Positions 24,950-58,100 of a stretch of 64,000 bases of DNA are shown here, one piece after another (the stretch's first letter is position 1; every line of letters starts with the position of its first letter). The stretch lies in the NCBI GenBank assembly GCA_037379345.1, contig CM074523.1, positions 31,573,678 through 31,637,677 of the forward strand, read 5' to 3'. The position numbers and the translations under genes were made by a program. The notes under the pieces were generated by a model. That model was given only the letters and a program-made list of their open reading frames with translations, made no database searches and was not told where the DNA came from. Source of the DNA: Perna viridis. Its lineage: Eukaryota.

Positions 24950-25190
24950 GTCCTCAGTATAGTAAATAAATTAAGTTTAGTAAAATTTGGAGGTTATTCA
25001 ATAATTAGCCGTACTTATCTAGAACGTCATTTGGTAAACAAGAAATAAATTGTCTGTTAAAATCCCAACTTTGTATTTCCGGTTGGAGAAAGTAACCTCT
25101 TGACAAAGTAGATCCGTGTAATTCATGTCTTCAATACAGTCAACAAATTAATTCTAGTAGAAGTCAGAAGTTATTCGATAACTATTAATC
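24832..25190. repeat. 177-bp tandem duplication spanning the GPCR start codon
   Basis: CCGTACTTAT..GAACGTCATTTGGTAAAC occurs at 24832 and 25009. Confidence 0.9.
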
Positions 25191-28635: not shown

Positions 28636-29083
28636 CTCCAGTGCGGGCTGGTATTGACGGCTAGCCTCCAGTGCGGTCTGGTATTGACGGCTAGTCTCCA
28701 GTGCGATCTGGTATTGACGGCTAGCCTCCAGTGCGGGCTGGTATTGACAGCTAGCCTCCAGTGCGGGCTGGTATTGCCGGCTAGCCTCCAGTGCGGGCTG
28801 GTATTGCCGGCTAGCCTCCACTGCGGGCAGGTATTGATGGCTAGCCTCCAGTCGGTCTGGTATTGACGGCTAGCCTCCAGTATGGTCTGGTATTGCCGGC
28901 TAGCCTCCAGTGCGGGCTGGTATTGCCGGCTAGCCTCCAGTGTGGTCTGGTATTGACGGCTAGCCTCCAGTGTGGGCTGGTATTGCCGGCTAGCCTCCAG
29001 TGCGGGCTGGTATTGACGGCTAGCCTCCAGTGCGGGCTGGTATTGACGGCTAGCCTCCAGTGCGGGCTAATATTGACGGCTAG
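28636..29083. repeat. GC-rich 30-bp minisatellite (~15 copies), GCTAGCCTCCAGTGCGGGCTGGTATTGACG
   Basis: Direct units; explains ORFs 28567..28821, 28654..28866 and 28863..29096. Confidence 0.95.
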
Positions 29084-29976
29084 ATTTTCACATTGATTTA
29101 TTTTAGAACCAGAATTGTTGCATGAACATATAGATATAGACGAACGATTGGGCTAACGGACTTAAGATTTACTTCTATCCCGGCCTCCCGTCGGAAGGTG
29201 CATAAAATTCTAAAATATTATATGATATACACAAATTTAATTTAACAATCAAGTTCCGTATTAAGAAAACATTATATGATGTTTTGTCAATTTAAAGTTC
29301 AATAATATCCAATTTTGCAATTATTTAAAGTACACAATATAGTAATTGGTTTTGTAAAAAAGATATCCTATCAATTTACAATTCAAAAGAAATGGTCACT
29401 TAAGGTCATCTGAGGTCCACGTGGATGTCAAACAAACGCTCAGGTGACTGCGTTTGGGGTCGGTAAAGGCCATCCTTCGTGCGGTTGTCAATCAAGAACA
29501 CAAACGACGGTATTCTTGGGTTTACAACTGTTTAATAACATATGTTACAACTAAATATAAATGTCAGGCAAATTTTGTAATGTTTGGAAACGCAAAAAAA
29601 AACAAAAAAAAAACAGCCAAAAGCCATAGGCGGACCCAGAAATATACAATATGTAGTTCTAGAAATAGGAGGGTCCCAGAATATTGTTTATTCCCTTAGA
29701 AATGAAAGAAATTAATGAAATCTTCCAACCCCAGGCGTTCACCCCACTCCTCATGGATCAATTTCTGCTACCAACAATTCCTTCGTGTAAAAAAATTGAT
29801 GTGACATTAAAAGGGGTCTTTGATGTTTTATATTGTTTGTTTTTATTTTAAATCTCAAAGTATTGTTTTTGGGTTTTTGTTCATACTATTGACAATATCG
29901 ATTTAGACTTACATATACAAGGATCCAGAAATAAAAAAGGGGTGTCGTTTCAGACAGTTATGCAAAGTGGTTGCAT

Positions 29977-30155: not shown

Positions 30156-31091
30156 GTTTTACGCTATCTTCTGTTAATTTTTATGACCTTTTGAACATCA
30201 TTACATTTATAAGACATCAAATAGCAAAGATTGGTCATGATAAAAACAAAAACAAAATTTCTTATTGAGATGTTAAGGTTTCCAGCACGCACGATACCTT
30301 AACGCTCGCAAAACGCTCACCAAACGCTATGCTCGTCCGATGAAAAAGTACTTACAATTAATGAAGAAATCGAAAAAAAAGTATCGTTAGAATATTTTAA
30401 AATAAACAAACGCTTCTATGGTGTTCAGCCAACGCACGATAATCGATGCAAGAACGCTGAAATTGGAAATCTTAATGTTTCAAGGAGTGTCACAAACAAA
30501 ACCATTTCCGGAGCCCCCGTATCCCTTTTTTAACAGCACTGCAAATCATACATGTACATGTACCTGTTACATTAAACAACATACGAAGGACGATTATTTC
30601 AAAGAATCTCTAAAATATAAGAGTTGCTTTATGCAAGCTGTTGTTTCTGTCAGCTACATTGATATTTTTATTGTTTTGTTCAACGTACATTTATTCGTCC
30701 CAATCCGCGATATTTTATTTCATGCCGCTTGCCTTTCTTTTAAACTGTCCATACTTAACTGTCCCATGCGATCTACGTTAAAATTTTGGCACGTGTTAAC
30801 GTTTGATCTCAGATGTTTATCTTACCAAAACTGTTGTTATCAATAATTAAAAATCTAACAACGGCGAAAATAGCACCCTTTCAAACAGTTTATAAAATAT
30901 AAAATTAAATGCGCATTATCTAATGAGGCTTGAAGATTTGTCCGTGTTCGGTATCGCTGTTCAGAATAAATTTCGATGCTCTCTGCTTGAACCAAGATTC
31001 GGAGGTGACCAGCATTGCCTGTGATCTTGCGTTTTCAATATATCTTGATAAATATGATGCTTGCGTGTATAACTTAAGAGAAAATTTGAAG

Positions 31092-31140
31092 ATGATCCCA
31101 GTTATATGGATAGTATCATCTTTCCGTCTCTATGTCTCAG
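31092..31140 (+). CDS. Cadherin-like gene exon 1 (putative signal peptide MIPVIWIVSSFRLYVSA)
   Basis: ATG, hydrophobic stretch, then a consensus CAG|GTAAGT donor, phase 1. Confidence 0.65.
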
Positions 31141-34100
31141 GTAAGTGAAATATATTTTCTTTAAAACAAATTGTACGTATCCTACTCCAGATTCCCGATT
31201 GCTCATATTGTTGATCAACCAAAGCTATATAATATAAGGACATTTTGAATACATACATGCAATGTTTTATTTGTTTTATTTTTATTTACATGTATATGAA
31301 CACCACGACAACAACAATAAACAACTGCCGAAAACTGTTGATCAGCAAAAAGTCCTTTCATGGTTATATATTTGATTATTACGAATTGTTCCAATCATAG
31401 GGCGCTCTTGCATGATATCTATAGTTTTGTTTTGTTTTTTTTTTTTTTTTGGTTTGTTTTTTTTTAAATTTTTTTTAGTAATAACTGTTTGTTGTTTTGT
31501 CTTGTTGTAATTTTTTTTATTTTGTTTGTTTTATTGTGCTTTCTTTCTGGCAGTCAATGAATTTTAAAATTTTTCTCAGTTTGCTATTTTTTGATTTCAG
31601 TTTTACATGTTACTTCCTAACATGTTCTGTATCAATGAGTCTTGCCACTTTGAAGTATTAAGGGGCGGATACAGGATTTTAAGGGTTAGGAAAATTTGGT
31701 GAACAAATTAGGTCGACAGTGGAAATACAAACGTATAGAGTTGATCGCCCTAACCGAAATATATACATTTTTCACTTTACTATCTGACCGATCGATCAGC
31801 TGCATTTCAATACTACATGTACATTTTGTAAATGGAGGTACATTACTTTCAATTCTGACAGATACCAATTCATCACAAGCACGTGGTACATGTAGATTTT
31901 GGTATTTTAGCCTATCATTTATATACATGAATGGAAAAATAAAATATTTGCATAATATGCCCCTAACGGTAAAAGGCATTTAATCTCCAAAAAAGAGAAT
32001 GTAAACTTTTAAGTGACGGGAAACACTACTTGAGAGCTTTTTTCCAAGAAAAGTTTTCATGCTGGTTGAATTGAATGAATAAAATAACGTTTTTTGAAAC
32101 ATTCAAAATCTGACATGGAACTCTTCGGTAAACCCCATACATCCCCTAAAACAACAAAATAAGAGTGACAATAATTATGTGCATTGTATAAACACAGATA
32201 CATGTGTACATGTGTATACACTACGTTTCTGGGTTACCGTATCCCTTGTTTCATCCAGAACCCAAGTTCTCAACTGGATATTTCTTTTTTTAAAATGAAA
32301 AACACCATAACGAACGATACTGAACCTATTACTGGGTATATTGTATTTATATTTACACCAGACCGTAACGTGTATATTCTGGTTCAAAAATTAAATAAGG
32401 ATGTCGAACACGCCAAAGAAAGACATTTAATTTACCAAAATTTAATTGAATTTTACAACAATAGTTTTTCATAAACAGATACATGTATGTTCCTTCTGTT
32501 TGTTGTTATTAAAGTTGTTTTTTTTATCTTCAATTCTTGCTTTGTTTAATGTGCGAAAACAAAAACCAAATCGGAAAAGTGAGCAGCCCAGTTAAAATTT
32601 TTGGAGTTTTTTCTTATTGAATTGGATTTTTTAAGGACAGAGAGGTTGTATGAGGTTTTATGCACTTGGTTATCTTTTGTCCTTGGTTATCTATAGGTTT
32701 TATGCCACTTTTGAATAGCTTTTTGTTTTTATTCATGTAAACCCCGGTATGGCTACACTCATACATAATGCAGTATTGTCGCTTGTACATACGACTTTTG
32801 TCTGTTAGACAAATTATTGCGGAGCGGAGATATCTCTTATTCCATATTTTACTCTACTTAAGTAACGTTTCGTGTAAGAAATAGGTAGAATTTTAAAGTA
32901 AATTATAAGTTTTGGGCAGGGGCATACTGGGATGGATCCAGAAATTTCGAAAAAGGAAGAACGCTGCTGTTGGTGTAAGGGGGGTGGGGATGGGTGGTGT
33001 GCTCTCGAGTTATTTCCAGTAGTTTTCCTATTTTGTGCATGGTCGTTTTTCTCTATCGCTGATTCTTAGATGGAATAATATTTCAAACCAATTCCATCAC
33101 AGTTTTTTACATCTGACCCCTGATCTTTGACCAATAAATAAACTATGTCCTTGTTAGCACTGGACATTTATCTCTCCTGTGGTAATGTAATCTTATTATT
33201 GCCTACATTGTATTTTCATCAGGCTATTTACTGTAATCTATGACATTTGATATTTAAATCTAAGTATGAATATGAAGACTATTTGTTTGGAACATTTGCA
33301 TTAATCAAATTTGTCCGCATGTAAGTTACACCTTACCGAAAGAGGTATTGCATGATAGAATTCAAGGATGAATCATTTGATTGATTCATTGATTTTGACT
33401 GTTTCTTTATTTTTGCTAATTCAATGATTTTTAGCATTGTAACAATAGTAACAATTCAGAATGACAGATACAGTATACAGTGGTGGGCCTAAAGGGAGGG
33501 GAGAGGTGTCTACAGGTTGGAAATATCTTATCAATTTTGTGGATTAAATTTGCAAAAAAATAAAGCAACATAATTTTTCTCAAAGATGACCTTGGACAAA
33601 CAAAATGTAAAATTTTAAGAAAAGAATATAGATCAACGTACTTTCAAACTAATTGAGCCTAATTATAGGCGAATTTTTACATCGTTTTATATAGATTCTT
33701 TAGGGACTTTTTCAAAGTTTCGCTTACTACTAAAAAAAACTGCATGGTAGGTAAAATTTCTTACAACATTATATAAAAGACACTGATGTACATTATTTCC
33801 TATTTAAAAATATATTGGTGTCAACGAACTTTTTTTCTTGTAAAATTGCATCTTTTCAAACCTTATTTGGTCATTATACATACTTTTGTAAGAGTGCTCT
33901 GTGTAATAGGTTTGTTCTACCTTAAGTAGCCGCTTGAAGTGTCATACTTATAAAGCTACCCTACCCCTTTTCCTCCAATTGGCCCGAGGGTCCCAAGTCC
34001 AAATCTTTCTGATGCAACAGAGTAATAAAAAAATAAGTAACTAAAGAGTGACACCTTATGTAGAGCCTAACAGAAAGTAGAAAAATATTACAAAATATGT

Positions 34101-37100
34101 GATGACCTATCATTCGATTATAAAACTAAAACGTTCAAAAAGTAACTGAAGACTGTGACACACGATAGTTAAATTTTGATTAAAAAACATAAGTAACTGA
34201 AGACTGTGACACGCGATAGTTCAACTTTGGATTAAACCCACTCGCTGTAGATCGTGGGTTGAAATCTAATATTTAGCTATATCGAGCGGAGAAATCTTGT
34301 CACCCCCGAGACTGAAGGATAATCTTAATTTCTCCCATTCTTAGCCAGTGATTTAAAGTACACGTGACTTTTTAACCACCTGGCGGTGACTAAATTTCTG
34401 CGAATTTACATTTTCCGAGCTTTACAAATTTTATAGGACAAACAGATTCTCCCTGAGCCTATTCTTGATTTAAATTATTTCTCCACTTCTGTGCTAAAAT
34501 TAAGATAGTAACATGCTCGCTAAAGCTCGCAAATTGAAAACAAACATCTTAATTTTGCCATCTCGAGCGGAGAAATAAAAAAAAATTCAATACTGAAGGA
34601 AGCTCTATATGTACACAAAAGATTAGAAACAAACTATCACCATTAACGGATGAGTCTAAGCTCTACCTATAAAGTTAATTTAAACTGAATTTTTCCAGAA
34701 AAATATTAAGCAATTACGAATTTTGAAAACAGGAAAATTATAACAAAATTTTGCATTAGGACCATAATTTAGAAATCGAAACAGGAAGTTATAAGAGTAT
34801 ACATTTTTGTACCTCGAGAATATGATTGTAACAATAAACTAGAAAATGATTTCCATTTTTTTTTCTTTACTGTCGAAAAAATAAAATAAAATAAACATTA
34901 TAAAGTCAAACTTTTTGAGATATGTAAAAATATAATTTCAGATTTGTAAACAGCTGTTGTCGGCTGTACAATGTATGTGCATGTGTACCTTCGTCAACGA
35001 TCATTATAGTCGGAAAAAGGGTCCACACCGGTCAAAGAGTAAAATTGCATTGACTTTTTATGAACAATGCAGCGGGGGTGTTCTATTGAAAAACAGAGTA
35101 CGCTGACCCTTCCGGTGCACCTAGTCCGCGTTCCCAGTTTTAGTGGAGTCCGATTTGCTCATTTACTTTTGTTTTCTTTGTACGTATTATTTTGGTTATT
35201 TTGTGTTTTTTGTTGTGCGTTTGTCTGTTTTCCCTGTCTTGTCTTTGTCTCTGGATTGTGTTATTTTGATTTTCACTAGAATCTTGGTTCCCTTTAATTA
35301 TTCTAACATTTGTCTAATTTGCATTTTGTTGTACATATTTTTTGTCATACCTATTATTGGTGTAAATTGCAAAATAAAGTTCTTATATATATTTTTTTTC
35401 TTATGTGTCGAGTTTTGTTTCCGTAGTGCCTGCACTTATTAATTTAGATATCTCATCTTGTGTTTATTTTATTTCATAAGCGGCAATTTACTCATATACA
35501 TGTATTGTGCATATTCGTCGCTGATGAGCTGAGTCTACAGTTTTAGCGATCTTAGGGTCGCTTATGATATTGACTATGGAACCAAAATAACACAAAATCA
35601 TACTGGTGTAACAATGCCTGCATAATTGTATAAAATAAACGTAGAACTAACAAAGATTTCTCTTCAAATAAACGTTTCAACTGGTTTACAAGTTTTTAAT
35701 GGTAAGTGTCGTCCACGAAGAGGAACGAATTTCCAGAACACCACTCGTTAAATGTCCGGCAACTATTCTAGCGAACATAATATATGGTGATTTTGTCACA
35801 AGTGGACGATCTGAATTACCATGTACAACAATTGACTGACATACATTGGCATAATGCATGTGCCATTTGATGATAACCCTGTTGAAGACTGTCTTTTAAG
35901 TTATTCCATTTCTCAAATGGTCTGATTAAATAAACAATCTCCTATTATGACGTTATTTTTTCATAAACAGAAGGAAAATATATTAGAGTTATACAAGTAC
36001 ATGTATGATCCTTTAATGATAATGGATTATTTATACATTTACCAAATTGAATTTTAGAAAAAGAGTATGAATGTCAAGTTTATATTCCTTTTTTTTAGCT
36101 TCCATTCAATGTACCACGTCGGATTACGCTGGAGTTGTCGACCCTGAGAGTTATCATGATAAATATGAAAACAAAGTCGGTTTGTAAACATAATTTATAT
36201 GTTTATCATTTTACAAAATATCGAAATAAAACCGAAGCGTGATCAATTGGACAATTCAAAAACAGAAAAAACACAAACAAAACAAAACAAGTAAACGAAA
36301 CACTTAAACAAAAAAGCGATCGAAACCTTTCTTGTTATGACCGGAATTAGATGTAGCCTCAAACTCCTTTAATTTTAATTGTTCCTAACTGATGTGTAAG
36401 TATTGCGTTAAATTGTACTCACTTGACTCCCTCTGATATTTATCAAAGTAACATCGTGTTAGAAAAGAAAATTAGAGAATTCACGATAAATTTTAAAAGA
36501 AGTCAACTAAGATAATTATGCATAAGCAACACTTGAACAAAGCATCGTGTCAAGCATCGTGTCAAACTTCGTGTCATGCATCGTGTCAAGCATCGTGACA
36601 AGCATCGTGTCAAGCATCGGGTCAAGCATCGTGTCAAGTATCGTGTCATGCATCGTGTCAAGCATCGTGTCATGCATCGTGTCAAGCATCGTGTCAAGCA
36701 TGTCCATTTCAGTATTGATCTCTAATACTTCTCTAATTCTAATACATATTTTGAGCTTTCCATTTGCAAGTTCAAATAGCAATTACATTATTCCCGAGAA
36801 TTAAAACAATTTTAACGAAAATAGTCATTCCTAGTACACGTAAGGCCATATTTAAAATAAATGTTGTTTCATGGTTCTCGTGAAAAATGCTCATTAACCA
36901 AAGTTGTATTCCTGCCTTCAAATGTTAATGTATCTGTTCAGTTTCTAAGTCTTGAAAGGGAACACGAAATAAACATGAATTATTACGTTTAGACTAATGT
37001 GTTCATGATTATGATTGGTCTATCATTTTTGTGGTTAAATATGACCCAATATGTTTATGACTATCTTCGTCCTAAAAGATCTATTATTTTGGGTGGCCTA

Positions 37101-40100
37101 ACATGTTTATAATGGTGTTTGGCCATATTTTTTATGATTATGTGGTCTGTAACTTTTTCTAAATAAGAACATTAAGTGAATACAGTGAGGCTTTCACATG
37201 TTTGAATCACTTCTCGTCTGAACTATATGTCGAGTGCTACTTTTAAAATACAGTAAAGACGGAACTTATTTGCCTTGGTTTCAAGTTGACGATATCTATA
37301 AATCCTTGAGTTTTTCCACAAATCTCGATTTCAAGTGGTGATTTGATTAATCAAAATTTGAGTTGAGGAAGGATTTAAGGAAAATCTCGAATTCGGAGAG
37401 TTTTATTTTATGAAAATCGAGCCATGAGAGAGCATGACAACAGACTACTAGACTAAGTATTTATTTCTTGATCTTTATAATATTTTCACCGTATTCATAG
37501 TATATCTACTGTATTCGACAATGCAAATGATATTAGTACAAATGTACATGTATTTGCAAATTTGATATTTGACGCTTCCGTTTAAACGGGCGTTGTTTTT
37601 TTTTAAGAACACTGTCTTTGTCAACTTGTAGGATGGGGCTTTGTTGTCCGACGACCGTCGTACGTTTTCCCATGCTGTGGCGTGGTCGAGAAATGGGAAG
37701 TTCACGTTGAGGAAGCCGGTACACTAGAAATGCAAGTATGGCGGGCAGATACTGGTTCCCAAGAAAAGCTTGTTGGAGAAAATTCCCTTTTAACAACCAT
37801 TGGTAAGTGTATAATATAATTTGTGTTATCGTTAAGGGAATTAACATTTAATTTTTCGGCTGTTACATATATTAAGATCAAAATCTTTGAATATGTCTTA
37901 CCTAATTTTATTATTTTTCACCAAGGACCATAACTCTGCTCAATCATATATACTTGTTCACCATACCCACCCACACTTTGAAAGCAAGAAGACATTTAGT
38001 GATCATTGTGTCCGTCCCTCCCTCCGTCCGTTTTCGCAATTTCCATTACAATTATCTCTGCAACTACTATATTTGAACTATTGTCTAGATTTAATCAGTT
38101 CGGTTTGTTTTTTACCTTCACTTATCATAGCCACTTGATATTTGTGCAAAAGATTTAATAATATATGCCATTTCACGGGATGCGATTTCAAACTAAAACA
38201 AAATCAACGATCTGTTTATCTTCGGTGATATTTTCACCATTTGGTTACAGAGACGAGGAGCGGGGGTATCCTTAGGAGGTAGACCTAGAGTAAGGGACTT
38301 AACTCACATGTACAAATCATTGAAACGTTTGTATTCAGCATTTTACATCAATCTCATGTAAGCGTCAAAGTAACTTGAACTGATTTCATTCTGTTTCAAA
38401 TGAAGCTTGATATGCTTTGGTGAAATTGAATATGATACAAACATATCACTGATTTCAAGAGTTGTGTCCCTTACCCTAGGTCTACCCACTTAAATGAGCG
38501 TTGGTTGTTAAATTTTTCTTTTTCTTGCATACTGTATAAAAATCTTTTTTTGCTAAAAGTAATGCGAGTCTACATGTGCATGAATGTCATGTAATATACA
38601 TGTGTATGCATTGCTAATCAGAAGATTTGTTTTACACAGGTACTTGTTGTGCTAACTCGGGAGAATGTAAACTATGTATGTTATTTTGTTAATAACCTCC
38701 GTTTGTAAACTAGTCCACCTAAGAAACAGGCATCTGATTTCTCATTTTGCATCGAATCATTCTGACCCAATTAATTGTAATTGTCACAGTTTTCAAATCA
38801 AATGTCGCACAAATTTAGCTGTAAAACATACATGCTTAATAATAGAAGTCAAACTTATTTGTTACATTGTACATATACATGTATACATGCATTTTTTAAA
38901 GGAATTATTCATAATATTAATAATTATGTTTGTTTTATACACAAATATTTGAAATTTTGAGCTGCCTGTTTCTTGAATAGATTAGTGCTCTGTATATAAT
39001 GTAGCTTGTAGGGTAGACTAATAGAAAAAATAATGTGACCCAGTATTGTAAATTATGTACACATATTGACCTTTACCGAAAAGAAATCGATGATATGCTA
39101 TGGCGACAATATGATTCGTAATAAATGTACCGAAAAATCATCATGAACTTGGGTGTAAGGTGGACACTTCCAGCCTATGTACTGCCTCTTTTCATTTACA
39201 TTTATTTTCACATTTCAATAATTAGAAAGCAGAAAGGCATAGCATGAGCATTACTCTAATTTTACTATATAGTCAGAATGGCAATACATTTTAATTTTCT
39301 GTAATTTTAGTTCTTAATAAATTCTACGATTCGCGTCAAACTTCTTGACAGAGTTATTGTTCTTTTCTTCTAGAGATACCTATCCAAATTTTTAGTGCCG
39401 TCCGATTGATGGAAGTACATTAGTCGAGTGTGAAAACAATCCCGGCGAAATTTTCAAGAAGGAATTCTCCTATCTGCATCCGAGGTTATTTTTTAGTAAA
39501 GCGGAAATGGCCGAGTAGTTCCGATTGAACTTCGGGTCTGCTTTCAGCACAGAAGTTAAATTGATTTGACAACTTGTCTTACAGACAAGTCGATCGTCCT
39601 AAGTCACTAGCTTATATCTTCGTCCTGTAAAAGAGTTTATACAGATCCATTGTACCTTTCTCATTTTATCCTCAAATTTGTCAAAACATTTGAGAAAACT
39701 TTAGTTGCACTGATGTTAAACGAACTTTTGTATGTACAGGTAGCGTTGCAAATGAGCTCATGTTCGTCATAAATATCACCAAGCAAATCACAGTAGTGCC
39801 AGGTGATGCTATAGGCTGGTAAGTACAATTTGTTTCGCATCATGTACTTACGTGATTTTTTATACAAACATGCATGCATGTAGTGATAGAGACGACGTAA
39901 ACAATCACTTCCGTTCTGGAAAAGTTTTCTCATTAATAACGAAATCAACTCATGTCAACACACATAAGACTTTGTGATGGGGCTATGGGAACAGAAACTT
40001 GATTCGATCACTACAAAGAATTGTCATACGTGTACATATGTTATCGAAGATTTTCATACTGAAAATTGACTGCCTACTTGTTTCTATGTACATGTATATA

Positions 40101-43100
40101 TATATATATCAAGTCTGAAGGAATCTGCCAACCAGCAAACGTATTTGGACATACATGTACTTTTTCTATATATGCACATACTTTTTCTAAATAAACTCAT
40201 ATTTTTTTTATGACGCATATAGTTCATTGTATGCACATTCTTTTTTTTCATACATAGAAAAGTATAGATGCATATATGGAAGCAATTACATGTATTAAGA
40301 CAGTTACACATATATACGGCGTTCCATACTATGACGTTTCATAACATAATCTTTTTTGTTTTTTTGTATATATGGGTAGTACAATTATAACAACGGTCAA
40401 CTTATTTGTGAAGCTAATCGACGGGTCAGGTAGAAGGGAGGTTTCCCGGGATTTTAAATACCCCCTTTCTAGATACCGACAAACAAATACCGGAGCGTCA
40501 ACAATGCTACAATCAAAATCCTAGTACACATGTTCATGGCCTGAACGTAAAAGCAGAAAATAAAGACAATTCGCATTATTATCCAAATGTATATAAAACT
40601 GAAATTAAGACATGCGAAACTTAACACACACACACAGAGCAAAACTAAGGAACTAGCACTGTATACTTTATACAAATGTTTCAGATGCTCCGGAAGGGTA
40701 AGCATGTATACCCATGCCGCAGCACCTGTCATGTTATAACTGAGTATAATTCGGTTATAATCTAACAACTATAACGCAGCTCCCTGATACAAGTCACAAG
40801 AGGCCTCATCATATTTTTTTACAACAGTGTTATCTTTGTGCATTTGTTGTTGCAAAAATGAATAATCAAATAGCCAATAAAACGTCTTTTAGTCTCACTT
40901 TTACATAATTAAGAATCTGCGCCTGGGCTTATATTTTCTTTATCGACATAGCTTTCGACTTCGAGCAGTATGCATTTAATGCATAGGGGACATCTCGGGA
41001 CGCGGACATACGGGTCCGTGCAGTGCAACTCGGACCGCCATCGATACAAAACGGACCGTAAAAAACAGGTTACTTCGCTTATCTGAAACGATATTTCGTA
41101 CCATAATAATGATGAAGGAGGTATAGAAAAAATCCTAAAACTTAACGAATTTCTAAAATGAAAACTCAGGCATTCCTTAAAAATAAAAGTTACACTCAAT
41201 TTTCTGTTTTTAAGGAGAACTGCTGGAACAGAGGTTCTAACATATAGTGACATCAAGAATGATGATAAATTAGTATATCACGACGAATCGATGCCGGATG
41301 TTCACGTCGGAGGAAAACATACATTTCCGAAGGATGATAAGAAGGACAGAATGTATGCTGTAAAAGCACATTTGGCGCCGGGTAGGTTTTGCCGATTTGT
41401 TTATATGCCTTTTTATCTAAATCGAACAACCATTTTTTTGTTTTATATTATGATTGAAGATCGGACATAGCAGTCACCTGAGCACGTTGATTTGTAAAAT
41501 CTGTCTGCACCCTTTGAGAGAAAAAGTTATATCGACATTGACAAAGTTGAGATTTCGAAGTCCACTGGATTAACATAGATTTTTGTACAATATCTCAGTC
41601 GTAACATGTATATTAGGTAACTTCGAATTATGAGAATAACCTACATGTACATATATATTACATCGTATGCACATGTGCTGATTAACCCTGATCTATTTGG
41701 AGTTTCGATTATTTATTTGGGTGCTTGTGACTTTCAAATCATTCACATGTGGCAGTGATCATTTCCATTTACATGTGTAAGTACGTTATCGCCCGGATGT
41801 TAAGACATTAAAGAAAATTAGTGACACTATGACAAGTCGTAGTGTTTTTACTTGATACCTTAATAGCATTCTGCATATACAGCTATCCGTTATTTGAATT
41901 GAAGTTCTGAGATTAAAGCTTATATTACTCATTCCATATCAAAGAGTAATCAAGGGAACCAAGGTTATAGCGGTAATCAAAAGAATGTAATCCAGGGACA
42001 AAGACCAGGCATGGGAAACAGACATACACAACAAAGAACATAAAGTAACTAAAATCATACATCCAAAGTAACAAAAGTAAATGAGCAACTCGGACTCCAC
42101 TAAAAACTGGGAGCATGGACCGGTTGCACCGGTAGGGTAAGCGTCCGCTGCTTTTCTAGAAACACCTGCCGAGTTGCTCATAAAAAGTCAAGACCGGGGT
42201 AGACAAACGAGGAAAGGAAAACTATGACCCGTTGAATAAATCAGTTTTCATGGTGCTGATAGATACACCATAACGATCCACGAGTTCATGATGACGACCA
42301 TATAACTTCTGTAGTGATGACTTCAATCTTGTAGCAACATAACCCTGTTCCAGAAGCCTCTTTGTTAGAGTTCTAGCGCGATACAAAAAGTCTGCGTAGT
42401 TTCGGCAAGCTCTGGCATAACGTATGAGTTGTGATATGAACACTCCATACGCAGGAGCCGAAGGGATGTTGCCACAGATGAAAGGAAAGTTGACAATTCT
42501 GAATGAAAAGTCATCACGTTTGTCGTAAAGTTTGGTCAATAGTTTTCCTTTACCATCGATTTCTAAGTGTAGGTCAAGATATGAGGCTGACTTCACAGTG
42601 TCTGTAGTATCCTTTATCTCAAGTTCTTTTGGGTAGATACGATGTATCAAATCCTCGAAATTAGGATTGTTTAAAATTGTTTAAAGATAACATGTCATCT
42701 GTATAGCGAAAACTGAGATTGAAGGATCTAGCTAAACAATATTCTTTCTTTCTGATCAGATCAGCTATAAAGTCAGCCTCATAAGAGTGAAGGAATAGGT
42801 CAGCTAGTAAAGGGGCACAATTTGTTCCCATTGGAATGCCGACCGTTTGTTGAAAAACACGTCCACCACACTGGACAAATATGTTGTCGATTAAAAATTC
42901 CAGCATTTTGTAAACATCTTCCTTTGTATATTTGGAAGATGATTTGGAATTATTTCTTACAAAGTGTAAGGAATCTCTACCAGGAACTATATATTTGTAT
43001 CTAGGTGTACCATCTTTTTTGGAAAAACAACGATGTATAATGTTTTTAAGTCGGGATTTTAACTGAGTTTGGGGAATAGAAGTATACAGTGTTGAAAAAT

Positions 43101-46100
43101 CATAGGTTTTAATGCTATTATATTTAGATAATAGTCTTGAACTGATTGTCTCCAAAAGATCTTTCAAATTATTCAGGATCCACATTGAATTAATACCACT
43201 ACGGGAGTAATTTGACACATCACAAATGTACATGGGTACTTTGATATTTGTATGCAACGATATACATGTACATGTGCTTGTCAAATCTTTTCATTTTAAA
43301 GTGCTTTTAAAATCTAAGTCTAATTCTTTTTCTCAATTTTAATTCAATAACTCTTAATTAAAGGCTTTCTTTCTACTCTTTAAAGGATATCACATGCCAG
43401 CCTGCTAAGCTAGTAATTTGAATATGTTTTGTATACCCTTTGCTCATTTGTAGAACGTATGTTTGGTAATTCAAAGCTTTATCACCTCTACCACACTCGG
43501 TACAAAACACCTCTTTATGTAATTTAGTATAATACTCTGTAAACTATTTCACTTATTTTCCCCCTTTTTAGAGAGGTTAAAAGCTTATGGGATTATACGT
43601 AGCATTTCAGAAAGCGGATCGATATGTCTGCAGATGAGAGACAGAAAAAAAACCAGCAAAAACAGCAATTTGCTTGTAACGTGACTTACATATAATATAT
43701 AACTTCAGAAGAGACAAGACCATTCGGTGCATTCCGATTTCGGTGCATAAAAGATTGAATAATTCAAGGTTAAGAACTTCCTCTGTCATCTTCCAGTCGT
43801 TGTTGCATGATCACAAACTGTGTTTGTTTAAAATTTCAGGTTCACCGCCAAGCTTTGTTAACCTACCCGATAGCGTTACAATGACCGATTCTATATTTCC
43901 GGGTTTTACAGTCTTTTCTCCGGTGATTACCGATGCTAATCCATTAGACACACACAATTTTACACACGCTGGCAGCCTTCCGTCGTATTTTAGTATTGAC
44001 GTAAACACAGGTACAATTAAGTGTTTACCAGTCCCTGTAAGAATCAGGCAGTAGGTGAGACACGGTAACCCATCATTTTGAAAATGTCCTTTGACTGTTT
44101 GCACCATCAGAATAAGGAAAACAGACAAGATTGTCTATATCATGCTGGACCATTGAGTTACAATTTCATTGAAATGCGATGAAAATAAACATAACAAGGG
44201 CAGATAACTCTGTCAAAATTCTCATTTTTCTAACATTCTATTGAAAAATTTCTGAACAAAGCCAGTGGTGCAGAGATAAAAAAAGGTCTTTTCAAATAGA
44301 TAAAATATCCTTGAGTGATATTACATTAATTTGTCAGATCGGTGGGGTTTCGACATGCACGTTTCTGATTTTTCCCATTTTGCCTGATTCCTACAAATAC
44401 TTACATTTAATGTTGATTACATTGAACACAAAGGTCAGTGGAATGAACACTCTGGTTTTCACAACCAAAGTTTAGTAGTTTTATTACGGTTACTCATACT
44501 ATAAATTCTATCTGAACAAAACAATTCACTCGCAAACTTGAAGGGAAGGAGTAATCAAGGGAACCAAGATTCTAGTGGAAATCAGAAGAATGTACATTTA
44601 ATCCAGGCACAAAGATCACACATGGAAAACAGACAAACATAACAAAGCAAGTTTCATAATTGGACTGTTGTTTTGTTTAAAAAGATACCAACTATCTTAC
44701 CTCGCTTTGTTCAAATAGGTTAAACTTTAAAAAAAATCAGAATCCACTGATTTTATACTCCTCAAATGAGTTCATTTCTTTAAGTACAGTACTCATACAG
44801 AATGTAAATTATTTTGATGAAATTCAGATTGCATTACATGTAAAAGTAGTGGTTTCATAAACTAGTAAAACATAGAAAATCTTTCTTTGTTTCTGAAGGT
44901 GTAGTGAAAGTAGCTAAGGAACTATTGCCAGCAACGTTTACCATATATCTTGTTGTGACTGATATCTGTGGACTGCAGGATACCCAACAGCTATCGATAA
45001 CTGTGACAGGACCTAATCACGTACGTACAGGGACGATCAGTTCTAGCAATCTCTGTACATTAGGATAAAGATTCAGATTAAGCTGGTTTATATCATAGTA
45101 CGTGGGCTGAGATAATCTCACCCACCACTGATCAACCAAAATATGATTTTCAGGTACCATTATACCTCCCTTTTACGATTTTTTTTGTCGCCAAAATTAA
45201 ACTGAAGCATTTTTGTATTTTTTGGTAATTTTTTATATCTCGTTGAAGCAAAAATCCATTTTTTACGTTTTTTGATTCTTTGAACTTATTCTTTCTTCAA
45301 AACGAAGTTAACTGACATACATGTATTTATAAATCATCATGTCTCAGCTTTACAATGGTACTAAGAAAGTTGCGGTAACACTTGGGGTTTTGGGGTAAAG
45401 CTAAAAAAATGTACCCCATACCCCACCGAAAAATTGCTTAAATTTAGGAATGTTGAATACATCGATATATGAAACGCAAGTATCCATCATTGATTATATG
45501 CTAAAATTGTTGTTTTATTCTTCTCGTAAGTGGAGGTAGCAATGTTTCGCTTAATTGGACTTGAACAAATTCAAATATTAATTACTCCGGCGCATTAGAC
45601 AAATTTAAATGTATTTGAATGTAAAATAGCTCGTTAGAGTATTTGAAAAAAATTGCCAATTACCGGTGAAATTGAAGGAAAAATGAAATTCCGAAAATTC
45701 ATCTTTTTATGAAAAAAAACTCATAATTGGCATAATGAATCTTGAATAATACGCACCTGAAAATAGCAGGTATACTGAATACATTGATGATTAAAGCACT
45801 AGTACCCAACTTGTATTTTTGTTATCGATTACAATGTATATGCAAAAAAATAACATTTGAGATCATGTTGAGGTACTTTCAGGGTTTTGGTTGGCAATAT
45901 TTCACCCATTAGTAATTGGTCGTTGAAAAAAGTTCAAATATTTATTATTTATTATTTATTATTTATTATTTGGGCTCATAAAAAGCTAAAACAGTATATA
46001 ACTGTATTTGAATATACAAAAGCTTGTTTGAAATACCGTAACGGTGTTTGAAAAAAAAAGCAAATTACAGGTACATGTAAAATGGAAGAAAATATAAAAT

Positions 46101-49100: not shown

Positions 49101-52100
49101 AATTCAAAGATAATCAAGTTTACTACATGTATCATAAAATCACTTCTACTGAAAACGAATTATTTTTGAAATTTTTTTCACGAGCTTCCTAAAAAAAAAC
49201 CCAGCTTTTAAACAGAATCTTTTGAATACCTTAATTATGGATGAGTATCAAAAATAAATGTACGATCGCTTGAGCTAAGCTGCAAATGACACCCGCTTCA
49301 AGGCGAAACATATATTATATTTTTTTGTTTTCCCATGAATTTTACCTGTTTCTATGCGCTGTGTTCTGTGCTGTGGTGTAAGGACCTCTGACGTTAAGGA
49401 TATGTCATAATGAATTTCGAATGTATGTCATGTAAGCGTCTGTAAATCAATTTAAGTGTAAGTGCTTGTAAGAATCAGGCAAAATGAAAAAAAAATCAGA
49501 AACATGCATATCAAAACCCCATCGAGCCGGCAATAAAATATCACTCTTTGTTGCTTTCTCTATTTGAAAAGGACATTATTTGATCTCTGAATTTCGCATA
49601 ATTTTATGTATAAATTTGTAAATACACCAAAATTTTGACATCAACCTCTAGAAAAAAAAGAAAATATGAGAATTTTGGGAATATTAATGGATTTTCTTTT
49701 ATTGACCTCGGTAAGAACATTGAATAGCCCACTCTCCTGTAAATAACACTGGTAAACATACGTAGTAGATAAAAATGTTCAAATAAAACACTGCAAAAAA
49801 CTTTATTTTTACAAAAGAACTTATTATTAAAGACATATTATGATATCTAAGAAAATAACAAGAGATACGATCCTTCTCTCTTAAAAAGCGTATTTTAAAA
49901 AAGTGTTACTTAGAATCATAAATCAAAAGTTAAACAGAATATTTGCCTGTACATCTATAGAAAAAAACATTATCCAGTAACTCATACACCTGATAAATTA
50001 CAAGTATCATGAAAATGTCGGAGCTAATAATTTCAAAGAAAGCCAACCAAATGACTTCAGCTTTTCCAAAAAGCTAATCTTATAACGACGTGTAATTTCC
50101 TCTAAAACGATATTCCAATCCCGATCCACCAGTGCTTACATGTATATAAATTTATAATAACTTTTAATTATAGTTCCCTTTTATCAATTTAATGGGTTTT
50201 AATATCAAATATCACTTATACATTATGAAAGAAACCTTGAAATCTGTGTCTTTTTCGTGCTGTTTCAAACTAAACGCAAGTGCTTCTTATTTTTCTTTGT
50301 TTCCCTCTTCATGTCATACTAATTACTATTAAAGTAAAGAATTTATTGACGTAACAATGTCCAATGAAATACACCAGGATTGTTTCCCTTCTGGCACAAA
50401 ATAGGCAATCGCCGTGTAAATTTAGTAACTAATGTACAAATTTAAGTGGACAATTATTGGCTGATTCAGGCGTTCGGATATAAAGGGGGCTGTTACATAC
50501 ATGTAAACATGTAGCTAAAGGCCGAACGGAGCGAGGCAAACACATTAATGAGGCTAGATCTAAAAAGAAAAATCAATGCATCATTCTTACATGACTTAAC
50601 TTAAGGGGAGTTTCGCTGGGCACGCCATTCCTTGATTCTACGCCTACGAATGTTTAACAAACAATAAAATGTGCAAGGCATACCCGAAGAGTAAATAAAC
50701 TTCATTTTACTATTTTTCTACAACAGGCACCTAAGCTCGAAAACATGCCGGGAATAGGTCATGTTAATGAAGACTTTGATACAGAGCAACTGGTGTATAA
50801 CCTTACTGTAACAGACAGTGATCCAGTCCAATGTTCCCTGTTTGATTCGGAACCAGACAACGCGCAGTTTTTACTGAAAATACACAAAGCCATTGCAGGT
50901 AATTATTTTTTATTTTGATCTAGGAGCAGAAAGGGACACATGTAATCTACATGTATTTTATACAAAAAATCAACAGTCTCACGCTTATGTTTCCGTTTCA
51001 AAGAGGGAAATGTAGCCACAAACGGAAATTTCTTACTTCTTATTTGAATGTTTTGCTTACAATCGTAATAAATAACTTACATGTGATTGCTTATGCAAAA
51101 CAAATTGATCTCGAACCCGTGATAAATATAATTAATTTAGTATCATGGACAAAACCCAGACATCGAAAACAGACAAACACAACCAAGCACATAAATTAAC
51201 CAAAATAGTACACAGTACATAGTAACAAATGTAAATGCGCAACTCGCACTCCACTAAAAAAACTGGGAGCGTGGACCAGGTGTACCGGCATGGTAAGCGT
51301 CCACTGCTTTTCTGGAAACACCCGCCGAGTTGCTCATAAAAAGGCTAAAGTCCGGGGTAGAAGCATATTCTCTTCTCAAGTAAATCTACCAAATAACCGA
51401 GCATATGTCGAGAAGATACGTGTATCTGTATCATGATAATATTTGTCATCAATGAATTTTTCTGAAATTCAACCATATTTAGTATGAGATATTACAGTAT
51501 TTTATGTAATGTTGATAAGATGCTTGCATTTGAAGGTCAAACCAATGGTAGTTTAGCATACGGTGAGTTATAGAATCCACTCTATTCTTCAACAAATATT
51601 TGTATTATATTGTGACACGTGTGATTTATAATTTTAATCACCTTGACTTAGGAAGAGTACACGTGACACTGTTTTCATCTTTATATATTTATTTCTTTAA
51701 TATTAATGTGTGATTTTTACACTTTTTTGTGATTTTCATCTTCAATTTTCAAGTTTTACACTTCGATCAGTATCATTACCCTGTAAACCGTAAAGAGAGT
51801 CCAATTAGTACTGTACACGTCCGAAGTCAGCAGTAAACATGCATCTGACACTTATTTCTACCGTTTTAAGTTTTAAAAGTTTAGTTACTGATTGATCAAG
51901 ATTATCTTTTAGTGTGTGAGATGCATTTAAATGTCGTTACAATTTGTAATGTGTATAATGTAACTCAAAAAATGTAAAATAGCTTTTTTGACATTTTATG
52001 GCACTGCTTATAAAAATGCGTGTTGGCGCGTGTGGTTGAAAAGATGAAAATTAACATTCAATTTGTCAATTTGGTTGATTGTACAAAAATGTACATGTAA

Positions 52101-55100
52101 AGTGTATTTTTTTTATGGTTTCATACAATTGAAATTGATTTGTGACAAGCTTTCTGGGTGGTTGGTTCTCTTTTAGCAATCCAGATTATTTCGTATATGA
52201 AACCTATACAACAAATTCGAAACATTTTAACCTTAATTTAGTATATGTCCAAAATGCAGTTTATATTTCGCCCCAATTTTTGTCCTGGATCTATTATACT
52301 ATATAAATATCAACCTGATTATAATATTTTGTTCTTTTAAATCAATTTATGTTTAAATATTTTTTTTTAATGTCCAGTTAACTGCCTGATTCAGTTCACC
52401 GTTTGATTCTCATAAAATCATCTCAACAAGAGACAGTTACAAGTACTTGCATTTATAACTAAAGCGCCATCATAGTTAAGGCAGTGTATTTATGAGGGCT
52501 AATGATTAAAAGCTACACTTACATGGAATAATAACCTGTTTTAATTTTTATTATTAATCTAGAATTTGGAGTATATCTAAAAGCAGGAGCAAATCTGTCC
52601 TACAGTCTGCAGTCTTCGTATGAATTGAACGTGACGTGCACGGATGGGTCGATGTGGTCGTCTGATATCATTTATGTTTATGTCAAATCAAATGCACCTC
52701 CAGTTTTCCAAAACTTACCAGGTAATAAAATATCAAATCGAACGCACTTTCAGTTTGCCAAAACTATCAGGTAATTATATATCAAATCTATCACACATCC
52801 AGTTTTCGGAAACGTAATCATTATATATCAAATCCAACGAACCTCAAGTTTGTTAAAACCTATTACGGTACGACCTCGGTCGTCTAAGGGTATCGTGCTA
52901 GCCCGAGTGCGAGAGGGTATGGATTGATCCCCACCAAGTCACATCAATCACTTAAACATTAGTTGTCTTCTCCGCCTATCACACGGTATGTTTTGGAGTA
53001 CAGTTGTTCCGATTGGGGTGGCATGCCTACTGTACCTGTGGTTTGTTGATTATGTGAGCTAGCAGAATAACAATCCGGTTCAATGTGTCGTCCTTAAAGC
53101 AAGGCCTTTTCAGTTGGTCAATCGTTGTTGTCCTGAATGCATAAAATATTATCCGTAGGACGTAAAATCATTCGAAATCAATCTAAACCTACTGGCCTGT
53201 TCGGGTAATGACATGTCGCATCGAATGCACATCCGATATTCAAACACCTACGTACATGTATACATTGGATTCTGTCCCTTTTGTTTTAGTTGATATCAGT
53301 GAACGTAACTGTCTTGGTTTGAGACAGTGGCTCCAACTTCCCGGGCGTCAACACAGTGTTCAGGAACAATTCGTACTTCTGGTTCCTAGTAATCCAGTTT
53401 TACTGGTCCTTTTATTTTAAAAAATCTCACGAATGAAACCAGGCTTTATACATGTGCTGATAAAGGGTATGATATGGATGTTCGGTGCTAAAATTTGTAT
53501 GAGTTTGTATGAATTATAAATGGTTATTTCTGTGTTTTCTTGATGTCAATGCTTCCGTACTATTTCAGGAAGTACTTCAATTTCTGCACGGACAGCAACT
53601 ACTGGGACATCATTTTTTACAATAGGTGCCACTGACGATGATGATACGAATTTAGTATTTACTATGAGTTGTGTTTTACCACAGTGTCCGTTCAACATGT
53701 CTAATGGTAATATTTAAACTACGAGCATCGCATCCTATTCAAACAGCCATGACTTCCAGAAAACATAAAGTAATAGTGAAAATAATATGAAATAAACGAA
53801 TCACAATTAACTGCATGGAGATTCTGCTTCAGTTATAAAAGTTTCAAATTATTTCTCCGCTCGAGATGGTGAGATTTTCAACATGCGTGCTTTATCGAGC
53901 ATGTCTTAAAGATTGCTTGTACCAAAAAGAGTGCAGAAATAATTAAAATCAATAAGAGGCTTTCTCCCATGAAATATGTACAAACCTATATGAAATGTAA
54001 AATGGCGGGAATAGGCTTGCGAACATTATATCACCGCCAAGTTGTGAAAACATCACGTGCATTTTTAATCACCGTCATAAAGAAGGAGAAATGGACTTCT
54101 CCGCTTCCTGATTTACATGTATTACGTATCTCTATGCAAGCTTATTGGTTCTGCTATACATGATGCTCATTAAAAAATCCGCGGAGTTATGTCTGATGTA
54201 TTTTATTAATTTGCATAAAGAGGCTGGGTTGAGTTCCGAATTAGGCAGAGGCGTTAAATTACAACCTCTGAGCAGGAGATGTGAAAATTTAATGTAATTG
54301 AAGGTTATCACTTAATTTCAATCAATTACTTATTATAATCCCCTCCCGGTAACATTAAACGCAGGGTCACTTAATCTGTTTTTCCTTATTCTTTGTAAGA
54401 AAACTTAGATACATGATTTATGTCTTTAATGAAAATTAGGCAAATGTTGATGTGGATGAAACTAAATATATATTGGAAGATATTTGAAGAAGAGTGTACT
54501 TTAAATTTTATTTATTAAGCTGAAGGAAATCTTCACTTCATTTCCACATGTATATAATTAGGTAATTTTGAATTTTCATTTATTCAACATGTATGTTTGT
54601 GTACAGATCTGTAGAACGAATCCCATGACCCAGTTGTTGAAATGATTTTGTACAAATTATTCAAGGTAATCAATATTAAGATTTTAACATTCAGATACAT
54701 TTTCTGCCCACAGGTGGTTATTTATATCCTACGTCATCATTGATTCACGATAAAACTGGTATATATGACGTCACAGTTACGGTGACGGACGGGAAGTACA
54801 CGACAGGTCCTTCTCTTTTGACCATCATTATTACAAGTAAGAACTGGACTGCGTATACATGTAGCTTGAAATTTTGGATTGATATTTCCTAAAATCATAT
54901 AAGAAAAAAACAGTTCTGATTCTAGATTGACGTAGGCTATCCAACAAATGAGGTAACTCTAACGTTTATTTGTATTGTGACATTATTTTGTAAATAGCAT
55001 AATGAATTCAATACAAACATCAATTGAATATAAACGTTACCCTTTCCTAGGATTACACTGTTCTAAATAGCGAACGATATGTTTTACTCCAGACAGAAAC

Positions 55101-58100
55101 AGTCCTCCAGTTATCAGCGGCGTTACAAAGTCCCTGCTTGTTTCGGAACATACGGCGCCATTGACGTCACTTTTGACACTCTCGATAACTGATGTTGATG
55201 CCCAAGATTCGCCAGTGTGTAGTGTTGACATTCAACCAGCAAGCGGTGTTTCCATATTCATTTTTGATTCACTAGGTAAGTGTGAACACCATGCAATTAC
55301 ATTTCCATGTTACTATTATCATCAGGTTGTTTCTAGAAAAAAAAAATAATACCTTGAGTGTTTAAAGTGAATCAGATTATTAAGAAGGGTTAATTTTTTC
55401 CAAGTTTGTACGAAATAAACAAAATATTCCAAACCTATTCCCTGTTGTTGGAATCCTTAACATGTGGTCCTGAGACATTGATACATATTTAATTTCTATT
55501 ATAGTTACATGTATCCCAAAACTACATGTATATAAAGTACACTATCTCGCTAACATACAATGTATAAAGGCTTCCAATGTATCGCGAAATCGCTAACAAA
55601 AGAAAAAATGTGATACATGCAACATTGGACTTGACGCTTAATTCAAAAATATATTTTCCCAAGAAAGAAAAGAAAATCCCAATTTCGTCCATTTGCATCC
55701 TTTCCTAATGTCATGTTCAGAAAATTACGGTCATATTGAGTGAAATTGATACAATGTAACAAAAAAAAAAAACACATGCACACACACACACAGATAGTAT
55801 GATCATTTGGAAAACTGTTGAAATACATGTAAGTACATATAAATTGTCAGGTTATATTGCTCCCGAATGGAGCCTTCGTAATTGTATTATAAACTTGGTT
55901 CATTATACCTATGACTTGGTTATTTCTTGTCAATTAGCTAGATATTTGTTTGCAAATATATTTTATTACATTAATTTTTTGCTGAATTTCCGAAAATTGT
56001 CCATAAACCCTGACCAACAAAGCCACTTGGGTCTAGGTCATCTCTGCTGTTTTTAATCACGATAAGATTCTTTATATCAATTCCCATAACAACCCTTGAC
56101 CTAGAGCTTGACTGTCCAGTTTGAGTGGGCGGTGTGTTATGTCTTTTTACGATGTAAGGAAGTCGATATGATGACTGAATTTCAGCCAACCGTGCAAAGA
56201 TCGGCATGTACCTAGTTTGGCCAAGTTATGAACGAAATTTACGCCTGCGCATTAGATCACTTCATATACAGCAAGTGTATCTATACAATTTAACATACAC
56301 ACTACATTTGTCTGTTTAGTACAGATCTAGGCCTGCTGTGAAGTATAAATTTAAATTATTTGTAAGTTATGATCTTTTATTGTTATATCATAACGTATGA
56401 CTAATTTCACAATTTAATACGTGCTTTTTTTGTGAAGTTTATCACTAATTGTAATTAATTGCATTTTTGTTGTTTCCCTTTAAATATGGCCTATGTTTTT
56501 TTCTTTCAGCATATAATCTACGTCTTGGACAGAATGCTGTCATAGATTACGAGCTGTTGACGGTTACAACATTTAACCTGACGTTTGTAGCAACAGACTT
56601 CATTGATGTCACATCCGTTTCCGTTTTAATTTCTATCAATGATGAGAATGATGCCCCCATGTTTACCTCACAAACAGCTTACATACAGATCAATGAATCA
56701 GACGTTGGTATAGTCTAATTGTAAAATATGATGTAGTCTAAGAACGTTTATTGAGTAGAAACAATGGTAGTCAAAAATTAAGAAAATTATTATTAAGACT
56801 TAAAAAAAACTTGTCTGTTTAAGTTATCCTACCTACCCTACCACATTATTTGGTTTGTTTTGATGAATGCCGCTAATCTATCATTTTTTTTTGGTTGAGA
56901 ATAATAATAAGTCAAGAAATTCTCCTATAAATGTCAATATAAAAAATATAAAAATATGAAATAATTTTACTTCTAACATAAATACGGATTTCATATGATC
57001 AAATTACAAACTTGAACATGTTAAAACTGCACAGTTTTAAACACCATGGTCCAACAAGATTTGATTAAATACCATGATTTTTTAAACTCCGCCCATCACA
57101 ACATGTAAATGGGGAACTCCCTCTTGATTTCCTCATATGGGCAATAGTATTAGGCTGCAATATGTTGGAATATTGAACTGTTTAAACTTTCAGAAAAATC
57201 AATATCAGGTGCTTTCGTTGAGGTACACGTTAAACTGGTGCGGCTTGTTACTCCACAATAATAAAATAAGACGTTAAACAATAGTACAATATAGAGACAA
57301 AACATGTTGTATGGTATTCATGATTTGTTGCATACATGTATTTGTGACCGGTTGAGGTGAGGTCTTACAATTAAGAAAATAAGGCGTTTTAAGTTGACAG
57401 AACATCCGTGTTTTATATTTGACTAAATAATAATATTAGTTAACGCCACCGAATTCGTAGGGATATTTTAGATAGGTACAGACCACGCCCATTTTAGCAG
57501 ATGCTTCACATATGGCGCTCGAAATGAAGCAATGGTTGTAGTCTCAAGTTTTAAGGACATTGTATGTCAGATACACTTTACTCTGAGTATTCAATGAATC
57601 TGTTAACTCGTCAATTTTAATATTCAGCCAAATTACGAACAAAGAAGCTTCATGGAACTAAAGCTCTATTTAAATTTAAATCAAAGGTATTTATAATTAA
57701 ACATTTAGCGTTTTCAGATATTGTGTCGTATCATAAGATGTCGACTTTCTTTTATAGGCAAATACCAAAATCGGAACAGTCCCCAGCCATGTAGACCAAG
57801 ATGTACATGAAGTTTTGCAGTTTAAAATTCTAGGTGGTACCGGAAGTGGTTTTTTCGACCTGAATCCAACTTCTGGTGATTTGTTCTTTAAAGTCGACTA
57901 TGATGTGGATGTGTCGTCATTTCCGTCTGATTTGTTTATTTTAATTGAAATTAGGGACGGTGGAGGGCTGACAGATAACTGTACAGTGTTCATCAATGTT
58001 ATTGACCTGAATGACAATGCTCCTCATTTCAATGCTACTAGTTATATTTTCAAAGTCAACGCAAACGCCCAGTCTGGTGTAACCATAGGGACTGTCCAAG

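Follow-up and report, generated by a model that had tools for sequence, protein, structure and literature searches.

The stretch of DNA analysed here (hereafter the window) comprises 64,000 nucleotides of Perna viridis, corresponding to positions 31,573,678 to 31,637,677 of contig CM074523.1 in GenBank assembly GCA_037379345.1, read on the forward strand and numbered below from its first nucleotide. Its main feature is a plus-strand gene for a membrane protein of the cadherin superfamily, in which a domain devoid of cadherin motifs, hereafter called the head, precedes the first extracellular cadherin (EC) repeat. The head appears to belong to a mobile domain family that is also found outside cadherins, and it may be a binding module carried on a cadherin stalk.

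Structure of the cadherin gene

Positions 30500-64000 were examined and yielded a model of 16 exons and ~965 codons, with GT-AG borders at all introns. The product consists, in order, of a leader (exon 1), the head (exons 2-5, residues 17-182), six cadherin-like repeats (exons 6-14), a single membrane helix near residues 832-852 and a tail of ~113 residues. The exons are as follows, with the evidence for each.

31092..31140, plus strand: exon 1, start codon and likely signal peptide (residues 1-16), phase-1 donor; best donor of 67 candidates.
36099..36179, plus strand: exon 2, head start (residues 17-43) with conserved Cys21, weak donor; boundary check, profile and alignment.
37632..37802, plus strand: exon 3, head core (residues 44-100) with Cys58-Cys59 and the best-conserved strands; profile, and a 67% identical relative.
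39740..39818, plus strand: exon 4, head (residues 101-127); boundary check and profile.
41215..41381, plus strand: exon 5, head end (residues 127-182), phase-1 donor; boundary check and profile.
43840..44010, plus strand: exon 6, first half of EC1; boundary check, repeat alignment and fold of a relative's EC1.
44899..45020, plus strand: exon 7, second half of EC1, which holds conserved Cys263; this Cys is present in 16/16 covering rows.
50727..50898, plus strand: exon 8, first half of EC2; boundary check and repeat alignment.
52563..52721, plus strand: exon 9, second half of EC2 and start of EC3; boundary check and repeat alignment.
53569..53706, plus strand: exon 10, EC3; boundary check and repeat alignment.
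54714..54836, plus strand: exon 11, end of EC3; boundary check and repeat alignment.
55093..55275, plus strand: exon 12, first half of EC4; boundary check, Pfam scan and repeat alignment.
56510..56707, plus strand: exon 13, second half of EC4 and start of EC5, ending at 56703, which keeps the frame of exon 14, or at 56707, which does not; boundary check and donor scores.
57758..58578, plus strand: exon 14, EC5, EC6, Ser/Thr-rich spacer, transmembrane helix and tail start; PF00028 at E 1.9e-12, above cut-off.
59954..60003, plus strand: exon 15 (inferred), 17 residues of the tail, including its only Trp; 6 candidates are phase-compatible, this one included, and some relatives have a similar Trp motif.
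60711..60928, plus strand: exon 16, tail end and stop codon; open reading frame list and boundary check.

The phases of exons 2, 3, 4 and 5 are 1-1, 1-1, 1-2 and 2-1, respectively, and these exons have AG/GT ends and form one open frame. The initial annotation had placed four small in-phase exons between a signal peptide and EC1, with the motifs CCG-x4-W, QVWR, LVGEN and GD-x-IGW, and this stands at the levels of DNA and homology but not of RNA. Reads from four runs over positions 30905-50904 are dominated by intronic repeats, with no exon junction among the 15 joints listed, 545 further joints being unlisted, and the bins of exons 3 and 5 have depths of at most 0.04 in the two raw RNA runs, sampled at 19% and 24%. 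That the head might be a separate upstream gene was rejected, because relatives have head and stalk in a single chain.

The exon 1 donor ranks best among 67 combinations of an ATG with a phase-1 donor in the 11 kb upstream of exon 2, and the short leader is likely a signal peptide, judging from its hydrophobicity and from the leaders of relatives. The exon 2 donor is the lowest-scoring one in the gene, yet Cys21 is kept in 14/14 covering rows. At the end of exon 13, donors 56703 and 56707 lie 4 bases apart and are both weak (0.5 vs -1.4, with a matrix of the gene's other 14 donors). Only the upstream donor keeps exon 13 in frame with exon 14, and it gives a 15-residue spacing, inside the 15-19 range of 15 complete relatives. 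With acceptor 57757-57758, positions 56703-56707 might represent a splice switch, a frameshifted allele or an assembly error. It is very improbable, in our estimate, that the family is real and the window copy broken, with use of donor 56707 shifting the frame towards a truncated or dead product, or with a one-base assembly error. The almost empty exon bins in two RNA runs would agree with a broken copy, as would two relatives that break or read through past the same Gly, which also fits a phase-1 intron there; however, donor 56703 scores no worse than its neighbour, its spacing is typical and the 16-exon model has no internal stop codon.

The head as an unnamed domain family

A search of 1.84 billion representatives with exon 3 alone retrieved 64 proteins at E-values up to 0.001. 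Three of them (P0041, P0048 and P0053) were dropped as spurious, their profile scores never exceeding 20 bits. We built a head profile of 163 positions from 20 relatives that had been retrieved with exon 3 alone; the window was left out, and exons 2, 4 and 5 were absent from the seed. When the window's 2,975 six-frame segments were scored with the profile, the top three places went to exons 3, 5 and 4, in that order, and exon 2 came ninth. The matches of the head exons follow one another correctly along the profile; once spliced, the head reaches 144.6 bits and covers profile positions 1-162. The profile detected no second head copy in the 64-kb window. In a set biased by having been found with exon 3, 31/41 short fragment matches stop at profile positions 77-82, coinciding with the end of exon 3, and this suggests a conserved intron.

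Known signatures did not name this domain. Pfam gave a convincing match for 0/20 relatives, the Lectin_like model PF18560 matched 0/20 heads at E-values up to 1, and the PHR (PF08005) and DUF4082 (PF13313) sequence models matched none of the 20 either. NCBIfam and PHROGs yielded scattered single-member matches to these heads and none that was consistent, and a sequence search of solved structures with the head returned nothing better than E 0.089. Pfam scans of single exons gave weak or chance matches only, except for exon 14, and the Atlas search with exon 3 alone gave only leads below 0.9. The earlier view of the head as an unrecognised domain without cadherin motifs thus withstood searches of all three family databases. 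Our literature search, whose coverage left out most subscription papers, found no description of the head or of its cadherin family, and the available parts of PMC9848320 and PMC12465263 contain nothing on either.

Predicted fold of the head

The model of the head of P0024, a relative, is nearly all beta, with a predicted local distance difference test score (pLDDT) of 91 and a predicted template-modelling score (pTM) of 0.88. Its best structural match is the Cwp84 lectin-like domain (4ci7 and 4d59), with Z-scores of 11.6-12.1 and a root-mean-square deviation (rmsd) of 2.9 over 146 aligned residues. Next come the central fibre of mycobacteriophage Douge (Z 11.2), a capsid chain of cyanophage A4 (10.7) and the tail tip of Bxb1 (9.9), followed by esterase N-terminal domains at Z about 9, and then by PHR (7.2-7.4), F-lectin, CBM32 and discoidin domains, together at 6.9-7.4. 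The head is therefore predicted to be a jelly roll of the galactose-binding-like type, and the model and its structure matches bear out, as a predicted fold, the beta-rich and possibly jelly-roll character first proposed from the letters.

The head and the Cwp84 lectin-like domain (PF18560) are both jelly rolls of ~165-170 residues, some relatives are also attached to proteases, and this is the nearest named Atlas cluster (0.88). However, identity is 8%, there is no Pfam match, and the head has an animal cadherin context and a cysteine pair. Similarly, the phage tail-tip and capsid jelly rolls (Douge, Bxb1 and A4), PHR and DUF4082 have the same predicted topology, with Atlas leads at 0.85-0.86, but only 9-13% identity and no consistent PHROG or Pfam match.

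Cadherin-type relatives

PF00028 was found behind the head in 12/27 longer matches scanned. Sixteen relatives, some of which are incomplete gene models, align with the window model at ~30% identity in every domain, and the layout of leader, head, six cadherin repeats, membrane helix and short tail recurs across them. The species-named cadherin-type members all come from oysters (Saccostrea echinata, Magallana gigas and Ostrea edulis), and Crassostrea virginica fragments are also among the matches. The oyster members carry the labels 'protocadherin Fat 4-like', 'Cadherin-23' or 'cadherin domain-containing', much as the initial annotation had anticipated in suggesting that pipelines would call the family Fat- or protocadherin-like.

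We built a tree of 58 rows, comprising heads that cover at least 100 profile positions together with 9 bacterial rows. The window groups with P0023 and P0002 (support 96/84), and there are several deep cadherin-type lineages. In two likely orthologue pairs, head and stalk are 75% vs 71-88% and 68% vs 73-84% identical, and between paralogue lineages the means are 32% vs 27-36%.

No Pfam signalling domain was found in the tails of the relatives scanned, and the catenin-binding Cadherin_C domain gave no match in exons 14 and 16 or in 12 cadherin-type relatives. A short Trp-containing motif lies near the C-terminus of the window protein (59954-60003) and of P0063, P0024, P0065, P0006, P0030, P0070 and P0071; it may be a docking motif, and the short tails have at most this in common.

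The head outside cadherins

Heads also occur in proteins of other types. The secreted proteins P0003, P0004 and P0008 have 3-5 tandem copies, P0007 and P0028 carry 3-4 unannotated C-terminal copies after astacin, ApeC, CUB, kringle, Sushi and C-type lectin domains, and P0054, a collagen/EGF protein of the annelid Owenia, has 4. The membrane protein P0002 is composed of three units, each a head plus one cadherin-like repeat, and has no Pfam match at all. In the Atlas, 30 matches reach at least 0.9, none with a common Pfam family, and the top three clusters are mainly sponge or annelid. The limpet pedal-mucus protein P-vulgata_14 has, in the available part of its description, the same domain list as P0007 and P0028 (astacin, ApeC, CUB, kringle, 2 Sushi, C-type lectin and ShKT); it is a secreted protease without cadherin repeats, likened here by domain list alone.

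Bacterial relatives of the head were found in 15/101 genomes of the order of G001, labelled Solirubrobacterales, which was picked for a resemblance; one of the 15, G040, is an unpublished genome on which none of the claims rests. Nine loci (L081-L089) encode secreted actinobacterial proteins with a head-related N-terminal domain after a leader-like stretch; an Asp-rich calcium-type repeat and then a basic C-terminal region often come after this domain. In another genome set, 0/4 genomes gave a match, and a scan of prokaryotes with P0077 mainly matched the calcium-binding repeats of that protein rather than its head. P0068, a protein with two head copies from a deltaproteobacterial metagenome-assembled genome, groups with animal tandem-repeat members (96/81), which may reflect transfer, contamination or a long-branch artefact.

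In the window, the head is flanked on both sides by phase-1 introns, the pattern of shuffled modules. By sequence comparison, then, the head is a mobile domain whose range is wider than cadherins and wider than lophotrochozoans. Its occurrence without cadherins, in tandem and protease contexts, fits an autonomous binding module.

Could the family serve as immune pattern-recognition receptors for microbial glycans? We consider this quite doubtful. The fold is lectin-like, and the domains found together with the head include ApeC and C-type lectin domains, reported in the available part of PMC7333891 to bind bacterial peptidoglycan; however, the head is no more variable than the stalk, and the tails have no known signalling domain. 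Its conservation, about equal to that of the stalk, argues against a fast-evolving immune receptor.

Cadherin stalk and calcium-binding linkers

We counted calcium ligands in 17 aligned rows that include near-duplicates and the window model, with positions mapped by eye from the cadherin consensus. The first Glu of EC1 and EC3 is present in 0/17 rows, LDRE-type acids at the distal junctions in 2 of 14-16, and the last linker acid in 1/16, 0/17 and 3/17 rows at EC1-2, EC2-3 and EC3-4, respectively; the DxD motifs of EC3 and EC4 are retained. The EC4-5 linker is nearly invariant, with nine ligand positions in 16/16, 16/17 or 17/17 rows, and the EC5-6 linker is mostly retained, with five positions complete and the rest in 9-14 of 16 rows. 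The contrast first noticed in the window, between three degenerate distal linkers (GPNHAP, KSNAPP and NRNSPP) and canonical membrane-proximal ones (DENDAP and DLNDNAP), thus holds across the 17 aligned rows.

A model of P0031, a relative of 461 residues, has a pLDDT of 83.8 and a pTM of 0.64. Solved EC repeats are matched by its EC1 at Z 13.2 and rmsd 2.3 and by its EC2 at Z 12.7 and rmsd 1.9. For two-repeat structures the rmsd of the matches is close to 10, which hints weakly at a bent arrangement, and calcium-free cadherin linkers are described as bend points in the available part of PMC8325961.

The stalk bears on another explanation, namely that the head itself is a surface for homophilic or paralogue-to-paralogue adhesion and that the family forms a cell-sorting code, which we regard as rather unlikely. 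The several deep paralogue lineages, with heads ~32% identical between lineages and 68-75% within the likely orthologue pairs, would suit such a code, as would the type I membrane topology with its cadherin stalk. By contrast, the head is also part of soluble tandem proteins, of proteases and of secreted proteins of bacteria, for which trans-adhesion is not an obvious use.

Conserved cysteines and a putative tether

Cys58 and Cys59 are present in 17/17 cadherin rows and Cys263 of EC1 in 16/16 covering rows, whereas 24/24 full head copies of non-cadherin proteins lack the pair. The third head of P0002 has a single Cys, and the repeat after it is the only cadherin-like repeat without the partner Cys. 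The Cys pair is thus seen only where a cadherin repeat with a matching Cys comes next, which suggests a disulfide tether. The pairing we infer joins Cys21 to Cys58 inside the head, and Cys59 of the head to Cys263 of EC1. A complex prediction for the head and EC1 of P0031, run without an alignment, gave no usable arrangement (score 0.08).

Such a tether might also be expected if the head were a structural cap or folding aid, akin to a prodomain, for a degenerate EC1, with adhesion coming from the cadherin repeats. EC1 lacks its calcium ligands, and a role as folding aid has been proposed for the Cwp84 lectin-like domain (PMC4089489, available part). Nevertheless, we hold this explanation to be improbable: the 17 rows show no conserved basic cleavage site at the head-EC1 border, the fold is not cadherin-like and the head occurs independently in many contexts.

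Other features of the window

Within intron 5, a minus-strand pair of broken reverse-transcriptase-like open reading frames belonging to a high-copy element has no Pfam match at 0.001 and very deep read cover; similar frames lie past the gene end. These and the remaining features of the window are listed below.

14186-24970, minus strand: Rhodopsin-family G protein-coupled receptor gene of at least three exons (7tm_1 matches), transcribed away from the cadherin gene and possibly resembling a neuropeptide receptor.
42222-43290 (intron 5) and 63336-63988 (past the gene end), minus strand: broken reverse-transcriptase-like open reading frames.
38311-38493: short high-copy element with inverted arms, like a miniature inverted-repeat transposable element, with many opposite-strand read joints.
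4838-5194, 28567-29152, 36503-36720 and about 62560-62960: tandem-repeat arrays with spurious repetitive open reading frames.

Comparison with known cadherins

The six EC repeats, the membrane helix and the PF00028 match in exon 14 liken the window gene to the cadherin superfamily. It differs from other non-classical cadherins in its non-cadherin N-terminal head, its size of ~965 residues and the loss of distal calcium sites. Fat4 combines about 34 EC repeats with EGF and laminin-G domains; orthology to it was rejected, as the window gene has six repeats and no EGF or LamG match. In protocadherins, EC1 lies at the mature N-terminus and the ectodomain is mostly encoded on one large exon, whereas the window gene has a head before EC1 and repeats spread over exons 6-14. 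The number of repeats is a point of likeness, protocadherins having six or seven in the available part of PMC6339937.

The extra modules of the hedgling, coherin and lefftyrin cadherins are hedge/VWA, cohesin and laminin-N domains, whereas the head-cadherin relatives have no Pfam match to them. These cadherins of choanoflagellates and sponges likewise combine cadherin repeats with non-cadherin modules, as described in the available part of PMC6030884. A cadherin prodomain was also rejected as the identity of the head, which is a predicted jelly roll with no conserved basic site and no prodomain Pfam match. The window protein thus belongs to the cadherin superfamily and fails the tests for the classical, Fat and protocadherin groups.

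Proposed mechanism

We consider it most likely, at about an even chance, that the protein keeps its head as a binding module, carries it on a cadherin stalk that is flexible in part, and recognises a conserved extracellular ligand. The head would cap the N-terminus of EC1, which many cadherins use for adhesion, and would likely serve as a binding tip for a partner other than itself. Cys21-Cys58 would close the head and Cys59-Cys263 would pin it to EC1. Calcium would stiffen only the proximal EC4-EC6 part of the stalk, so that EC1-EC4 could bend, and the outward loops of the head could bind a conserved ligand such as a glycan or a glycoprotein of mucus or matrix, and specificity would differ between paralogues.

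Several points weigh against this proposal. The fold was predicted on the head of a relative, P0024, which is 32% identical to that of the window. Proven lectins (F-type, CBM32 and discoidin) match the head model only at Z 6-7.5 over ~100-110 aligned residues, the common range of the structure tool, and sugar binding therefore stays a candidate function. In addition, the authors of the Cwp84 study state that the usual sugar site seems absent from its lectin-like domain, of unclear function (PMC4089489, available part). Calcium-free linkers also occur in Drosophila cadherins that are homophilic (PMC8325961, available part), which favours the homophilic alternative. Since the cadherin-type heads are possibly one clade, with weak support (59/78), the co-occurrence of the cysteines amounts to about two independent events and is a lead only. 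Finally, the window copy may be frameshifted at the exon 13/14 junction.

Significance

The cadherin architecture and the unnamed domain family are new, whereas the fold class is already known and unnamed domains are common in invertebrates. The head represents a family of extracellular domains overlooked by Pfam, NCBIfam and PHROGs, and a cadherin group with multiple paralogues lies hidden under 'Fat 4-like' in oyster annotations. More tentatively, these proteins could form an undescribed mollusc class of cadherin-lectin receptors, in which an ancient jelly-roll module, common to bacterial surface proteins and phage tail tips, would have been shuffled onto a six-repeat cadherin and locked to EC1 by a new disulfide, before expanding into paralogues that read different glycans; the module itself would then be a lectin family widespread in sponges, annelids and molluscs.

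In the available part of PMC6337334, the oyster larval-settlement candidates include three 'protocadherin Fat 4-like' genes, whose membership of the family is a possibility only. Expression and proteome studies with 'Fat 4-like' labels could be re-read in the light of this family and, if the head binds glycans, cadherin stalks would act here as lectin carriers.

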